A model generated the notes under the pieces. The model did no database searches, had not been told where the DNA came from, and saw only the letters and a list, made by a program, of their open reading frames with translations. This document shows, piece by piece, positions 15,842-21,732 of a stretch of 42,036 nt of DNA. The number at the start of each line of letters is the position of its first letter. The stretch's first letter is position 1. The stretch spans positions 1 through 42,036 of the forward strand of contig JAVZVY010000003.1 of NCBI GenBank assembly GCA_038878295.1. The letters are read 5' to 3'. Source of the stretch: Candidatus Micrarchaeaceae archaeon. Lineage in GTDB: Archaea; Micrarchaeota; Micrarchaeia; Micrarchaeales; CABMGC01. Made by a program: the position numbers and the translations under genes.

Positions 15842-15934
15842 ATCGGAGATAGATAACTTATGCTATAGAATATTTATATACCTTATTGTAAAGCTTTTGG
15901 CTTAAATGCTGATATAAAGTGACGTAAGAAACAG

Positions 15935-16821
15935 CTACAAAGGCTTTCCTATCAGGATTATGCCAAGCACGATAAGGCCCCGCCAACAAGTTCTATTGGA
16001 TAGTAACTACCTATTATTACGCTCCCAAAAAGAACCAAGACCGTGTCTGCGTATTCGAAGTTGTTTATAAAATTGCGCGTTATTACTGTCCTGCCTATTC
16101 CACGCGTCTTGGTGAGTTTCATTGCTCGTAGCTCGAATACTGAGGCAAAAGAGAAAGTGAAGCCGCCGAAGAGGCCAAGCCCGAAGTATGCATAGTTGAG
16201 GCTTGCACCGCCAATATAAAACGTGACAAACAACGCTATTGGCAGAAATATGACAGGTTGCAGAACGAGCTTGCTTCCTATACTGTACTTCTTAATTTTG
16301 TAGAATTGAGTATAATAGCCTGCACCTGCTATAATAGATATGCCGAATACGAATGGAAGTGTTCCGATCTGAAAGCTAAATCCCTTGCTTTCGGCAAAGA
16401 AAACGCCGATTACTACGAACAGCACGCCGATAGCAAGGAGAGCGACTTGACGCGGCCTAAGCGACTTTCTATAGCGTGCGAAGTCTATCAGGAAAAAGAC
16501 CAGAGACGAGAGCCCTATTAATGGATATATGCTCGCTAGGGTATATCTTGTGTAGCCGAATAGCAGCAGCATAGTATAGCTTACTATCATCACTGCAGAG
16601 AATGCACCAAGATAGTACCTTTTGGCGTCCTTAAGCCTGAATCTCAGCTTAAATGCGTAACCAGCTGCAATAATGCCCAATGTTATGCCGATAGCTATGG
16701 AAAGCATGGCAAGCCCGAGCTGCATGTTCTTTACTACGAGATAGTCTATGGTGCCATTTATCGCGTATAGCACTGTGCTTGCAATCATGAATGCGTATGT
16801 TTTTCTGAGCATATAGGGCAT
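15935..16821 (-). CDS. EamA/DMT-like membrane protein with an apparent 1-nt frameshift near its 3' end
   Basis: Multi-pass TM ORF 15958..16821. The shifted frame continues LIVLGIILIGKPL* and completes the typical EamA terminal helix. Confidence 0.65.
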
Positions 16822-16868
16822 CCGCTTGCAAGCGGGTCTTAGTGGTTTTTACAGCACGTATGCGTCGT

Positions 16869-18347
16869 CTATTTGCCCGCCTTTTCTGCATGCTTCTTTG
16901 CCTGCGCTTTTGGGATGGGTTTTACTGCAGGGAAAGCTATTACCTCTTTTATCGAATCGCTGCCTGTAAGTATCATTGCTATGCGGTCTATGCTCACGCC
17001 TATGCCTGCTGTAGGCGGCATACCATATTCTATGGCTTCAATGAAATCGTAATCGGAAGGTGGCGCTTCCTCGTCGCCTCTACGCCTTTCCTCTTCTTGT
17101 TCCTCAAATTTTTTCCTTTGTTCTATGGGATCTGTAAGCTCTGAATAGCAGTTAGCGACTTCTTTGCCCGCAATGTAAAGCTCGAACCTCTCGCTTAGGA
17201 GCCTGTTTCCTCGCTTGTCTTTAGTGAGCGGGCACATGTATGCTGGAAAATCAACAACAAATGTTGGCGCGAACAGCCCTGGCTGCACGTATTTGTCGAA
17301 GAGGGCATCGGCTACGTGGTAGGCATTCTTCGTCGGTATCTGCAGATTTTCCCTTGCAGCTATTTCAATGGCCTCTTTATCGGTAAGCGTTGAAACGTCT
17401 ATGCCGCTCATTTTTCTGAGCTCGTCGACCCAGTAGAGACGTTTGAAAGGAATGGCGAAGCTCAGTTCCTTTCCTTTGTATTCTATTTTTTCTGAACCGA
17501 ATATGCTCTTAACCATGCCATTGAGCATCTGTTCTGTGAGGGTCATGAAGTCATTGTAGTCTTTGTACGCTTCATAAAATTCCACTTGAGTAAATTCTGG
17601 ATTGTGTGTAGAGTCGATATCCTCGTTTCTGAAGTCCTTCGAAACCTCGTATACCTTTTCGAAGCCACCTATGATGAGCCTCTTCAGGTACAGCTCGTCG
17701 GCGACGCGCAGGTAAACATCTGTGTCTAGTGCATTATAATGGGTAACAAAGGGCTTTGCATTTGCGCCTCCGTATGTCGGTTGCAATACCGGCGTTTCAA
17801 ACTCGATGTAGCCGCGTGCATCGAGAAAATCTCTAACATGCTTTAGGATTTTGGCTCTTATTACAAATAGGTTTTTTGTTTCTGGATTGGCTATGAAGTC
17901 GAGGTGGCGTTTCCTGTATCTGACTTCCGTATCGGTAAGACCGTGAAATTTCTCTGGGAGCGTGAGAAGCGATTTTGAAAGAACCGTTATTTCCTGGGCG
18001 TCTATGCTTATCTCGCCGCGTTTGGTTTTTGTCACAATGCCGGTCACGCCTATTATGTCACCGTTGTCAATTAGCTCGATGATCTTCCTAGATTGCTCAT
18101 TAAGGAAATCTGATCTTGACATTATCTGTATCTTGCCGCTGCTGTCATAAAGGTCGAGGAACCTGACTCCGCCTATGTTGCGCATGCTGAGTATGCGGCC
18201 GGCAACGCTGGCCCTTTTGCCGTCGTATTCTGCGAACCTTTCCTTAATATCTGAGGAATGCGAGGTCTGATTGTATGCGTATGGATATGGATCTATGCCA
18301 AGCGCCTTAAGCGATTGCAGTTTTTTAAGCCTGAAGTCGTCAGCCAT
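16869..18347 (-). CDS. lysS: lysine--tRNA ligase, class II
   Basis: OB fold, YRKRHLD, FRNEDIDSTHNPEFT, ERFEL and YGMPPTAGIGVSIDR. Confidence 0.96.
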   Translation of the reverse strand: MADDFRLKKLQSLKALGIDPYPYAYNQTSHSSDIKERFAEYDGKRASVAGRILSMRNIGGVRFLDLYDSSGKIQIMSRSDFLNEQSRKIIELIDNGDIIGVTGIVTKTKRGEISIDAQEITVLSKSLLTLPEKFHGLTDTEVRYRKRHLDFIANPETKNLFVIRAKILKHVRDFLDARGYIEFETPVLQPTYGGANAKPFVTHYNALDTDVYLRVADELYLKRLIIGGFEKVYEVSKDFRNEDIDSTHNPEFTQVEFYEAYKDYNDFMTLTEQMLNGMVKSIFGSEKIEYKGKELSFAIPFKRLYWVDELRKMSGIDVSTLTDKEAIEIAARENLQIPTKNAYHVADALFDKYVQPGLFAPTFVVDFPAYMCPLTKDKRGNRLLSERFELYIAGKEVANCYSELTDPIEQRKKFEEQEEERRRGDEEAPPSDYDFIEAIEYGMPPTAGIGVSIDRIAMILTGSDSIKEVIAFPAVKPIPKAQAKKHAEKAGK

Positions 18348-18811
18348 CGTTACACCAGAGATATTAGCCAGCTCATGTTTTTAATGTTTGCTAGACCTAC
18401 ATTCCAGTAAACAATCAAGAAGAATCAACGGTTACTACCTAATTCTTCGGAGATTGCAGCAAGGTCGCATGACGTGCAACAGTTTTACATGTATAGCATA
18501 TATCAGTCTACACTAGATGTCCGAAAGTAAATAAGTTTAGCTGTATTTGCCCCAATTTATAATTACGGTTTTAGTGAACTACCCTGCCATTGCCTAGCGG
18601 ATAATGTGGGTGTGCAAACAACGTGGCCGTGTTGCTATCAGAACACTATTTCTATGATTCAGAAATTGACCACCGCTACCAGTCAGGATACTTTTAGGAT
18701 GGCGCTTCTCAATCTCAGATTCAGCGAATTTCTTAGCTCTCTGGTGTCGAGACTGGCAGATATCACAGAATTTAGCTTCTTTGAGACAATAGTTGCTTAT
18801 TTTGCACCGTG

Positions 18812-19591
18812 CTATTCTTTTATCTTGTTTTTACTCTTTTTTGTTTCTTCTTTTCTTAACGCTCCAGAAAGATACGCTTCTGCAACCGTATCCTGCAGCA
18901 ACCTGACATTTCCATTTCTGAGCCTTTCATAAGCCGTCGTAAGCCTCTTAAGTTCTTCATCACCAACCTCTGTTATTTTTCTGCTTTGGTTGCTTATGGT
19001 GTATATATCTATGGGTTCTGCCAAAAATGTCGGCGACAACCGCATAGTATCCTTTATGGCTTTTAGCACTACAAGTTTTCCTTCTTTCATAGTAAGGTCA
19101 ACATCCTCATACTCCTTAAGTGCGGCATATGCTAAATCATTTTCAGCCAACACAACGAATTTTTCTTCGGCGTGCCTGCCTCTTAGATAGTGGTCAGCAA
19201 CCCAGATGGCATTCTTGCCATTGCTATCTACGTAAGCCAATATTATCTCTATTGAAATGTCTTCTTTTACAGCGTCAATGCTCTGTATGCCGCTACTGCT
19301 TCTAAGTTCAACGTCTTTTTTAATTATGTCTGCAATGCCTGAAAGAAACTGTTCAAACATGCTTTCGCTTATTTCGGGTGCGTCTCCAAAGACATCATCT
19401 GCAAGCTTCTTGATCTTTTGATTTATCCATACGGTTCCGGCCAGAGCCAGAATATACTTATCTGCAGGGTAGATCTTCTTTAGATATACGGATACGTAAC
19501 TGGATGGATCAGCATCTGACCTTAGGCTCATGCCTGTATCGGAAGCCACAACTATTCCATCAACGCACTTCAGTGCTATGACCAATGACGT
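18812..19591 (-). CDS. proteasome-beta-like Ntn hydrolase (predicted Ser1; proposed ACG start)
   Basis: SLVIALKCVDGIVVASD aligns with the T1...D17 pattern, followed by KKI and ALAG. The ORF track starts at TTG 19585. Confidence 0.75.
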   Translation of the reverse strand, partial: TSLVIALKCVDGIVVASDTGMSLRSDADPSSYVSVYLKKIYPADKYILALAGTVWINQKIKKLADDVFGDAPEISESMFEQFLSGIADIIKKDVELRSSSGIQSIDAVKEDISIEIILAYVDSNGKNAIWVADHYLRGRHAEEKFVVLAENDLAYAALKEYEDVDLTMKEGKLVVLKAIKDTMRLSPTFLAEPIDIYTISNQSRKITEVGDEELKRLTTAYERLRNGNVRLLQDTVAEAYLSGALRKEETKKSKNKIKE

Positions 19592-19616
19592 ACAACCACT
19601 TGGATAAGTCTATACT

Positions 19617-20387
19617 TTATATTTTTGTCATCTTCTTTTCTGCGGCATCGGTGCTGCCTCTTAGATGCCGCAGCATGTCACTTATTAATTGCTGCTCCAT
19701 CCTGTTTATATCTTTATAAGTGCTCTCAAACTCTGCGATTTTGATGTCGTTAACCTTTTCTATGCCTTTGCTGCTCATCGTATAGATGCTTATCGGTTCG
19801 AGCAACTCAGATCCTGAAATAGACATCGTGTCTTTTATTACCTTATAAGCGATAAAGCTGCCTTCCTCGATTCCTAATTCTTCATTTTTATATTTCTCGA
19901 GCTGCAAGTTAGCCGCGCTTTCTCCTACGCCAATTCCGACGGCTCCTAATCTGTTTTCGCTATTAATTACTGTTGGAAGCATGTCGTTTGATATTATAAC
20001 CGCTGTCGCTCCATTTCTTTCATCGAAGCTTGCAAGTAAAAGTGTTGCATCAAGCTCTATTTTGGTAGCATCTTCTTCTGGGTCTTCGCCCCTCGCCATT
20101 CTGGCTCTTTTTATGTATCCCTCCTTGCGTTCAGCAAAATCTTCCAGAAATTTAGCTTTTATATCTTCAAATTTCTTGTTTTTGTTTAATTCTGTTTTGA
20201 GAAGCTCTCTAGCTTCCTCTATAAGGCTGTAGTCTCCAACACCAGAGAACAAGAATCTGCCATTTATAACCCTGATTTTCTCTCCACGTCGCAATATGGC
20301 TGTATTTTCCGTATACGCAGTATCAAATCCGCTATCTGCAGCTACTACAATTCCATCGTTGCATGGAATGTATATCAATAATGTTAT
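19617..20387 (-). CDS. proteasome-beta-like Ntn hydrolase (predicted Thr1; proposed ATA start)
   Basis: TLLIYIPCNDGIVVAAD (T1...D17), EKI, SGVG and GIGVG; paralogous to its neighbour (IKDTM...L.EPI.IYT.S). Confidence 0.78.
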   Translation of the reverse strand: MTLLIYIPCNDGIVVAADSGFDTAYTENTAILRRGEKIRVINGRFLFSGVGDYSLIEEARELLKTELNKNKKFEDIKAKFLEDFAERKEGYIKRARMARGEDPEEDATKIELDATLLLASFDERNGATAVIISNDMLPTVINSENRLGAVGIGVGESAANLQLEKYKNEELGIEEGSFIAYKVIKDTMSISGSELLEPISIYTMSSKGIEKVNDIKIAEFESTYKDINRMEQQLISDMLRHLRGSTDAAEKKMTKI

Positions 20388-20544
20388 TTTACCGCCTATT
20401 GTTTTTTGCTGAAAAATAAATATAAATATGTCGCACAAACACCAGTACTTTACAACAAATACACATATTTGCTAGAGAGAAAGTCAGAGCGCCAAACCGC
20501 GGTGAAGATAGGCATTTACCCGTGCTTTAACTTAAGTCAAACTG

Positions 20545-20619
20545 CGGGCCCGGTGGGATTTGAACCCACGACTTAAAGGTTAAAAGCCTTCCACTCTGGC
20601 CAAACTGAGTTACGGGCCC
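20545..20619 (-). tRNA. tRNA-Lys(TTT), intronless
   Basis: GGGCCCG/CGGGCCC acceptor stem, GAAGG-CTTTTAA-CCTTT anticodon arm and GTTCAAATC T-loop. Confidence 0.95.
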
Positions 20620-20698
20620 TTTGCATATTGATAATTAGTATTGTGTGAAATATTTATATCTGATTTGGTTTATACTGATTCTTGGTTTTAGTGAAAGC

Positions 20699-21238
20699 AT
20701 GAGCAAGCATAATGCACATGCGCACACGCATGGCTATTTTAGCGCGGAGCCAGACGAATCTACAAAGAATCTGCTGGCACAGAATCTTGAAAAAGGCGCC
20801 GTAATTGTAGATTATGGATGTGGAATTGGCAGATATTGCGGTGTGCTTAGTGAATATGCAAAGAGACTGTATTGTGTAGACGTTAATGAAGAAGCCCTAC
20901 AACTTGTAAAAGCAAGGTTTGAAGACGCAATCACAATAAGTAGTACTGAAAGCATAGAAGGCAATAGCGTTGACACAGTACTTCTTGCGAATTCTTTTCA
21001 TGATTTTGAAGATAAAGAATTCGCGGTATCGGAGATTTTGCGAATCTTAAAATATGGAGGCAAAGTGATAGTAATAGATTGGAAAAAGGCAGACTCTGAC
21101 AAAAGTGTAGCGCTGTTTGGCCCACCGATGCGAATTAGGATGAGCAAAGAGGACTATAAGAATTACTTCAAAAAATTTAGACTTATAAATGCGTTAGACA
21201 TCAACGAGACGCATTATGGACTAATCTTCAGCAAGTAG
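20699..21238 (+). CDS. class I SAM-dependent methyltransferase
   Basis: VDYGCGIG motif I, VDVN, NSFHD, RILK.GGK and IDW...GPP. Start at ATG 20699 (AGTG + 5 nt). Confidence 0.85.
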   Translation: MSKHNAHAHTHGYFSAEPDESTKNLLAQNLEKGAVIVDYGCGIGRYCGVLSEYAKRLYCVDVNEEALQLVKARFEDAITISSTESIEGNSVDTVLLANSFHDFEDKEFAVSEILRILKYGGKVIVIDWKKADSDKSVALFGPPMRIRMSKEDYKNYFKKFRLINALDINETHYGLIFSK

Positions 21239-21240
21239 TT

Positions 21241-21732
21241 TTATATTCCTAGATCCTTTCTGATTTTTGAGTTCTTGGCGAATACCAAGTATGTGATTAT
21301 TATGAAATCTATTATTATGGCACAGTGCATTATCGTGCAGTATATGCAGATTGCTTTAACCACGAATAGCTCTAGATAAATCAAATACGGCACAAGCAAG
21401 AGCCCAAAAAATCGCCATGCAAAAAGCGCGTTGAATGTTTTTCTCGCTATGCTGCTTCTCATGAAAACTACTGAGACAACCAGCAGGATGTTTATCACGA
21501 ACCACAATGCAGCGAGCATATCTAGAGACACGCCAAAGACTGTTGAATACGGGCTTTCGAGAACTTTCATGCAATTTATCTGAACGCCGCCCGAATGCGA
21601 GTTCCCAGGTATTGTGCAAAACGGCGGTGAAGTATGGAATACGTCAAGTTCTATTATTATAGTAGTTGCAGAAGCTATGCCGATTATAGACATTGCAATT
21701 AATATCAGAAAATCTTTGTAAGATGCTCGCAT
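21241..21732 (-). CDS. vitamin K epoxide reductase (VKOR) family protein
   Basis: Four TM segments, loop cysteines (FCT...NCMKVLESPYS) and a CIYC redox motif. Confidence 0.88.
   Translation of the reverse strand: MRASYKDFLILIAMSIIGIASATTIIIELDVFHTSPPFCTIPGNSHSGGVQINCMKVLESPYSTVFGVSLDMLAALWFVINILLVVSVVFMRSSIARKTFNALFAWRFFGLLLVPYLIYLELFVVKAICIYCTIMHCAIIIDFIIITYLVFAKNSKIRKDLGI

Follow-up and report, generated by a model that had tools for sequence, protein, structure and literature searches.

In a stretch of 42,036 nucleotides from a Candidatus Micrarchaeaceae archaeon, a small inhabitant of hot springs (GenBank assembly GCA_038878295.1, contig JAVZVY010000003.1, positions 1 to 42,036; hereafter the window), an operon of two genes encodes paralogous, proteasome-like N-terminal nucleophile (Ntn) hydrolases, and its second gene probably begins translation at ACG. 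This gene, referred to here as gene B, runs on the minus strand over 18812..19591, and its 259 codons encode a proteasome-beta/Anbu-like Ntn hydrolase with Ser1, Asp17, Lys38 and Gly51 and a long C-terminal helix. Its proposed near-cognate initiation codon lies at 19589..19591, and ACG is absent from the starts of NCBI translation table 11 (TTG, CTG, ATT, ATC, ATA, ATG and GTG). Near-cognate initiation at this site had been put forward in a first-pass annotation of the same DNA, and comparative evidence from the source genome (752,021 bases in 43 contigs, 95% complete) and its relatives supports it: the codon is homologous to the start codons of orthologues, it stands at the preferred distance from a Shine-Dalgarno (SD) core, it obeys a family-wide rule on where the nucleophile sits, it is carried by contigs from two studies, and codons of the same kind recur at the starts of other genes. 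If it is the start, its yield is probably low.

Read along the minus strand from 19600 to 19580, the site runs AGTG-gttgt-ACG-TCA-TTG-GTC. The SD core AGTG (19597..19600) is separated by a five-nucleotide spacer (19592-19596) from the ACG, which is followed by TCA (19586..19588), encoding the serine that would become the N-terminal nucleophile Ser1 once methionine is removed. Next come a TTG (19583..19585), at which both the mechanical open reading frame (ORF) call and the database call begin, and a GTC (19580-19582). An in-frame TAG at 19610..19612 closes the frame seven codons upstream of the ACG, and none of the six codons in between (ACT TAT CCA AGT GGT TGT) is ATG, GTG or TTG. With the ACG as start, the protein opens with S L V I A L K C V D G I V V A S D, which places Ser1 16 residues ahead of Asp17. 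The mechanical call instead yields a product beginning MVIALK, after the serine, and thereby deletes the nucleophile; so does the call of the database representative P0001, which is 99% identical to gene B, with a single Val/Ile exchange relative to the protein of the window, and is likewise started at TTG. All four of these features (the order of elements, the closed frame, the Ser-Asp distance and the loss of the nucleophile from the TTG call) had been described in the first-pass annotation and are present as it described them. Recoding of the TAG to lengthen the frame was considered and ruled out, as an in-frame TGA lies further upstream and the orthologues begin at the codon homologous to the ACG.

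Five loci with orthologues of gene B were recovered when an alignment served as query against genome contigs; the single gene B protein used as query against the same contigs found no related loci, and one scan of metagenome contigs with the alignment query likewise found none. All five orthologues start at the codon homologous to the ACG, which reads ATG, GTG, TTG, TTG and TTG. It is placed 5 or 6 nucleotides behind AGTG or GGTG in each and is followed immediately by a serine codon, and this serine is invariant across all six aligned sequences. At the position of the window's TTG the orthologues have TTA, ATT, CTG, CTG and TTA, so the TTG is not conserved. Inspection of this codon in orthologues had been proposed alongside the original claim, and its outcome, a start codon at every locus behind the same SD core and ahead of an invariant serine, favours that claim. 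The nearest known orthologue is only 60% identical, and the closest orthologue starts with ATG. The wider family behaves in the same way. Run against 1.84 billion representative sequences, an alignment of gene B with its orthologues matched just 151 at E<=0.001, and 128 of 154 family proteins begin with [M/V/L][T/S] (Thr in 116, Ser in 12), from which it follows that the start codon directly precedes the nucleophile in this family. Initiator Met, Thr/Ser1, Gly11, Asp17, Lys38, Gly51, Gly147 and Pro192 are near-invariant in a 112-sequence alignment. A nucleophilic Ser1 at the mature N-terminus of gene B would need both initiation at the ACG and removal of methionine.

The geometry of the SD element points to the same codon. 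Distances between [AG]GTG and the start were counted genome-wide, taking for each ORF of at least 100 codons its first canonical start, 1257 in all. A spacing of five nucleotides (written here [AG]GTG-N5) occurs at 104 of them and is the genome-wide peak; a spacing of 11, which the TTG of gene B would need, occurs at 6, and spacings of 12-20 at a mean of 2.8 per offset. The AGTG-N5 ahead of the ACG is thus the organism's preferred ribosome-binding spacing, and the peak at 5 against background at 11 argues that the AGTG serves the ACG rather than the TTG. Behind [AG]GTG-N5 in this genome the start is ATG in 74 of 104 cases (71%) and TTG in 21. Within the window itself, 14 such motif-plus-start sites stand ahead of ORFs of at least 60 codons, among them those with starts at 18347, 15718, 15171, 29471, 25027/24794, 34872, 39287, 20699 and 1267, and for every gene that had been cited in comparison the motif was seen ahead of an ORF, at the level of motif and ORF.

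That the base itself is real is indicated by assembled Logan contigs of four sequencing runs placed on 18700-20500, those of two runs lying off the start codon. In the likely-source run a contig covering 19422-20500 at a depth of 138 carries ACG and has three differences, none of them near the start; in a run of another study a contig covering 19430-19607 carries ACG with zero differences. The C whose confirmation had been called for is therefore present in assembled contigs of two studies. Further inside gene B, positions 19296-19451 split into several short contigs with depths from 34.9 to 137.1 in the likely-source run, and such short contigs of unequal depth fit co-existing strain variants there.

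Near-cognate codons also occupy start-homologous positions in other genes of this genome. Long ORFs were scanned for a non-canonical codon that lies in frame behind [AG]GTG-N5 and precedes their first canonical start; this gave 121 events at spacing 5, several of which can be judged by homology. One parallel with gene B is an aldehyde dehydrogenase of 540 codons (C1:51300, minus strand; Pfam Aldedh, 434.5 bits), where GGTG-gttaa-ACG has a TAA directly upstream of it. Its first canonical codon comes 14 codons downstream of the ACG, inside the conserved N-terminus: in 19 loci of relatives (one from the unpublished genome G197) a motif F/S-x-N-E-F/S-T-Y/F lies a few residues past the start, and in the source genome the conserved F-x-N-E-F-T-Y precedes the first canonical start. 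The counterpart in a genome of the same genus (G040), an 88% identical protein, has GGTG-N5 followed by ATG at this place, and 117 of 121 genomes of the order carry the gene. A protein disulfide oxidoreductase (C11:6652, plus strand; GGTG-agagc-ATA) matches TIGR02187 with 270.8 bits (cut-off 185). With the ATA as residue 1, positions 2-209 of the profile fall on residues 6-213; an alignment from position 2 onwards requires the ATA as start, the first ATG lying 26 codons further on. A search of 118 genomes found this gene in 41, and among the best 30 of these 41 the start codon is ATG in 20, TTG in 4, GTG in 3 and ATA in 3, the ATA belonging to the source genome, its congener G040 and a member of a third genus (G123).

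The third case is a conserved protein of 280 codons (C5:13682, plus strand; GGTG-cttga-ATA) present in 109 of 118 genomes of the family. It matches no family in Pfam or NCBIfam, and the suggestion of an AbrB-like N-terminus found no support there. Of 31 rows for its start, one lay too close to a contig end, and the 30 counted give, in the computed register, ATA 10, ATG 9, ACG 4, ATC 1, TTG 1, GTG 1 and other codons 4. With five rows re-registered by one to three codons on a K-V-Y-K motif (two of the five script-checked), the figures become ATA 11, ATG 11, ACG 5, TTG 2 and ATC 1, so that 17 of 30 are near-cognate. The ACG rows come from G035, from G402 (95% identical to G035), from G248a (identical), from G396 (64%) and from G414 (48%), and ACG at this start is common to three species of one genus; G035, G402 and G396 keep it across diverged species. 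For G035 and G402 the frame is closed by a stop 5 codons before the ACG, and a canonical start follows only 41 codons after it. Taken together, ACG and ATA at start-homologous sites of other intact, conserved genes make initiation at ACG plausible in this lineage. As for G248, the protein of its locus L073, on a 1328-base contig (C17), is 100% identical to that of L121 in G035, which belongs to another genus, and on account of this identity the contig may be mis-binned. Further candidates from the scan include GGTG-N5-ACG before an epimerase-like gene (C26:6453, plus strand), whose first GTG would cut its Rossmann motif; this gene has a match in only two of five relatives, with differing N-termini. 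Others are GGTG-N5-CTG at C4:12012 (minus strand), with an N-terminus that resembles a PHP-type metal site by eye alone, and GGTG-N5-ATT at C10:16127 (minus strand), two codons before an ATG.

Initiation at the ACG would follow a simple course. The 30S subunit would be placed by pairing with the AGTG core 5 nucleotides upstream, and initiator Met-tRNA with its normal CAU anticodon would read ACG despite a mismatch at the middle position, presumably inefficiently. A type II methionine aminopeptidase would then take off the methionine, and the freed Ser1 would act as catalytic nucleophile together with Asp17 and Lys38. Three things are inferred in this scheme: initiation by ribosomes at the ACG, a low yield, and selection for that low yield. 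The parts needed are encoded in the genome. Methionine aminopeptidases cleave Met ahead of Ser or Thr, and one of type II is found with 252.7 bits (cut-off 222.65). The initiator tRNA has anticodon CAU, an A1:U72 pair and three G:C pairs in the anticodon stem, as read off the ARAGORN output by eye. That ACG use depends on an unusual initiator tRNA is ruled out, this one being standard, and loss of the initiation factor aIF1 is ruled out as well, since the factor is present (SUI1, 64.3 bits). As far as the genome sequence tells, none of the machinery examined (aIF1, methionine aminopeptidase and initiator tRNA) explains a relaxed selection of starts. ARAGORN also reports a tRNA-Ile with anticodon UAU (89653-89729, complement) and 26 tRNAs in all; with just 26 found, many tRNAs, containing introns, were probably missed.

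Precedents exist in each domain, and each is only partly alike. In archaea GUG and UUG are permitted besides AUG, and in a Sulfolobus system aIF1 discriminates against AUU (both described in PMC4705826); the role of aIF1 in fidelity has been reported on SD-led mRNAs (PMC6237735). The yeast CYC7 reporter described in PMC4705826 resembles the present case in its codon, its use of initiator tRNA, its middle-position mismatch and its low efficiency; the same source names ACG as one of the most efficient non-AUG codons of a yeast reporter, with 0.4-0.5% of the AUG level. Archaeal aIF1, aIF1A and aIF2 are, moreover, homologues of eukaryotic initiation factors. Unlike eukaryotic ACG initiation, the codon here would be selected by an SD element 5 nucleotides upstream and not by scanning, and it would be the gene's sole start and not that of an alternative isoform. 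Bacterial AUU and AUA starts such as that of infC, as PMC4705826 presents them, share with gene B a weak start behind an SD element that gene callers miss, and they set or regulate expression level; gene B differs in that ACG lies outside table 11, that the host is an archaeon with eukaryote-type factors and that no autoregulatory logic is evident. The closest archaeal parallel is a tubulin gene of Asgard archaea for which a rare ATT start has been proposed (PMC13394414): as reported there, a conserved N-terminus demands a near-cognate start at a plausible ribosome-binding distance, as it does here. The present case differs in phylum (Micrarchaeota-type DPANN) and in adding ACG to the AUH set. 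Our literature searches, whose coverage lacks most subscription journals, found neither ACG nor ATA reported as a start codon in any DPANN archaeon, Micrarchaeota included.

Several observations weigh against initiation at the ACG. The codon stands at the start of gene B in one genome of six and is not shared by diverged species; an orthologue of gene B occurs in none of the 117 other genomes of the organism's own family, and the operon could be a recent acquisition under weak selection. Genome-wide, near-cognate codons at the SD-plus-five position are not significantly in excess: in a greedy set of 599 likely genes they number 7 against 34 other codons, compared with 8 against 65 at the control spacings of 8 and 11 (Fisher p = 0.26), so that the case rests on single genes judged by homology. 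Among these, the ACG rows of the 280-codon protein in G396 and G414 are less secure because a canonical codon in the same frame precedes the ACG without an intervening stop, and the row of G248a, being identical to that of G035, is not independent. The genome encodes aIF1, a factor reported to discriminate against non-AUG codons (PMC4705826, PMC6237735). The run data, finally, are contigs, in which rare variants drop out, so a minor ATG allele could have gone unseen. One serious rival is recent start-loss, in which a single ATG-to-ACG transition left gene B a young pseudogene with its SD element and serine codon as leftovers. The restriction of ACG to one of the six genomes, the ATG of the closest orthologue, the absence of the segment from the congener and the rest of the family, which suggests that selection may be weak, and the lack of a significant genome-wide enrichment all suit it. 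What makes it unlikely is the state of the gene and the company that it keeps: the ORF is intact over its 259 codons, and at sites where the other five sequences all agree it has six changes of its own, a number within the range of one to nine that the others show; the same ATG-to-ACG pattern is seen in a second intact gene of the genome, the aldehyde dehydrogenase found almost throughout the order (117 of 121 genomes); in relatives, ACG is kept at a start position between proteins that are 64% identical; samples of two studies carry the ACG; and the two genes of the operon lie side by side at all four orthologous loci with a complete upstream flank.

Initiation at the TTG at 19583..19585, as the databases have it, would make gene B a nucleophile-less, inactive, alpha-like partner of its upstream paralogue, gene A. 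TTG is a canonical codon that accounts for 21 of the 104 starts led by SD-N5 in this genome, both the mechanical and the database calls choose it, and inactive proteasome alpha subunits do exist (as described in PMC8665760). Such a start is nevertheless improbable, for the SD core would stand 11 nucleotides away, a background spacing (6 against 104 of 1257); the orthologues have TTA, ATT, CTG, CTG and TTA at this position, and all five begin one codon ahead of the serine; and the serine codon and every catalytic column have been kept. Less probable still is that the ribosome meets an AUG after all, either by C-to-U editing of the transcript, a process that occurs in plant organelles, or from a minor ATG allele that consensus contigs conceal. 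The loss of rare variants from contigs and the strain bubbles nearby at 19296-19451 in the likely-source run leave some room for a hidden allele, against which two contigs of two studies show C with no listed difference. Editing would have to cover the ATA starts too, and C-to-U conversion cannot mend ATA; no editing of this kind in archaea appeared in the start-codon literature searches, which were not aimed at editing. The remaining probability falls to something not considered. Set against these alternatives, initiation at the ACG of gene B stays the reading that we favour with moderate confidence.

Whether the pattern extends beyond single genes is more evenly balanced. We hold the chances even that Micrarchaeota-type DPANN archaea use an enlarged, SD-dependent set of starts, comprising AUA, AUU/AUC and ACG, that is selected at particular genes, probably for low expression. 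If so, no conserved ACG start occurring naturally in a prokaryote would, as far as the literature searched shows, have been described before the one kept here across proteins only 64% identical, and the annotated N-termini of these genomes would contain systematic errors. Wherever ACG or ATA starts are real, standard gene callers and the table 11 list would truncate proteins or lose their catalytic N-termini: gene B stands in the database without its nucleophile, and 26 residues would be missing from the called oxidoreductase and 41 from the 280-codon protein of G035. Archaeal start selection with eukaryote-type factors would then tolerate a middle-position mismatch when a strong SD element fixes the ribosome, which bears on how aIF1 sets stringency, and weak start codons would amount to a tunable device for expression in very small genomes.

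The protein at stake belongs among the proteasome homologues. Gene B matches Pfam PF00227 (Proteasome) with 28.7 bits (cut-off 22.4) and gene A with 27.5 bits, and TIGR03634, the archaeal 20S proteasome beta equivalog, scores 24.3 bits against gene B with a cut-off of 224, leaving it outside that equivalog. Two strong PF00227 genes, with 177 bits and 157.7 bits, lie elsewhere in the genome on contigs C6 and C16. Profile matches of the family include archaeal 20S beta (3h4p_a, 1.9e-24), archaeal alpha chains (3.7e-20) and Anbu (5nyj_A, 3.9e-12). The AlphaFold model of gene B has a proteasome fold (predicted local distance difference test 94.7, predicted template modelling score 0.89) with a C-terminal helix of 47 residues (210-256); its top Foldseek matches are Anbu (5nyg/5nyj/5nyw) and bacterial and archaeal 20S beta subunits, with probability 1.00 and template modelling scores of 0.59-0.68 on the query. 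The catalytic set Thr/Ser1, Asp17, Lys33 and Gly47 is found in gene B, its Lys38 being equated with Lys33 and its Gly51 with Gly47 by alignment position alone.

Anbu, like gene B, has a C-terminal helix. Anbu has conserved operon partners; next to genes A and B lie lysS, tRNA-Lys and a putative methyltransferase. Anbu and the group II families WPH and ACC of Fuchs, Alva and Lupas (2021; PMC8665760) share with gene B the proteasome fold, the Thr/Ser1-Asp17-Lys33-Gly47 site, the lack of a propeptide and a similarity to both alpha and beta subunits. The likeness to WPH and ACC lies in three features (no propeptide, likeness to alpha and beta, a long C-terminal helix). According to the same source, propeptides occur in most beta and HslV subunits and in no other proteasome homologue, a rule that agrees with the start lying directly ahead of the nucleophile in 128 of 154 family proteins. 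Unlike Anbu, WPH and ACC, the present form consists of adjacent paralogues, 26% identical, one with Thr1 and the other with Ser1, and is known from 6 of 248 genomes of the order; the operon thus adds a patchily distributed, paired Thr1/Ser1 form to the recently enlarged catalogue of proteasome homologues.

Gene A, the Thr1 paralogue, lies upstream of gene B on the same strand (19617..20387), and its own start may be near-cognate too. The proposed codon is ATA (20385-20387), directly before the ACA of Thr1 (20382-20384), and an element GGCGGT (20391..20396) may act in the manner of an SD sequence, its GGCG standing 5 nucleotides before the ATA and differing by one base from the GGTG of orthologues. 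In four orthologous loci of gene A (L003, L004, L005 and L007) the codon before Thr1 is ATT, ATA, ATA and ATG behind GGTG-N5/6; in two of the four the frame offers no canonical start anywhere from the upstream stop to Thr1, and the database calls of two gene A orthologues (P0009 and P0015) are truncated. An AT-rich, TATA-box-like stretch upstream of gene A (20412..20429, minus strand) is a putative promoter element, similar TTTATA-type stretches lying at the same distance, some 30-40 nucleotides upstream, in four orthologous loci. The TTG of the mechanical gene A call, at 20438, is upstream of this stretch. Across six genomes, ATG accounts for 2 of 11 start codons of the operon against 71% of the SD-N5-led starts in the source genome (binomial tail 0.0004), a figure that overstates the contrast because the relatives are not independent and gives only a hint that weak starts may be favoured in this operon. 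In distant single-copy homologues from relatives, a canonical start stands directly before the Thr in nine of nine rows (ATG 7, GTG 1, TTG 1); one of the nine is from the unpublished genome G197, and two further matches are cut by contig ends. Besides the four loci at which genes A and B adjoin, a fifth (L006) holds the C-terminal part of gene A at a contig end.

The operon lies in a segment of about 2.1 kb (18393..20543) that is absent from the collinear contig of G040, in which lysS and tRNA-Lys are only 76 nucleotides apart (locus L080). In the window, a tRNA-Lys (UUU; 20544..20619, minus strand) stands immediately upstream of the operon. A 12-nucleotide direct repeat bounds the segment (18384-18395 and 20465-20476), although a two-copy repeat so short can arise by chance, and the guanine-plus-cytosine content of the operon segment is 0.412 as against 0.43-0.49. 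The six genomes of the order that carry gene B orthologues are the source genome and five of another family; at a looser threshold, gene B-type matches occur in 16 of 401 genomes of a phylum sample. The missing segment in the congener, the patchy distribution and the slightly lower guanine-plus-cytosine content together suggest that the operon was acquired by transfer. Two other parts of the window, 15886-16895 and 20688-21241, likewise have no blastn counterpart in the G040 contig.

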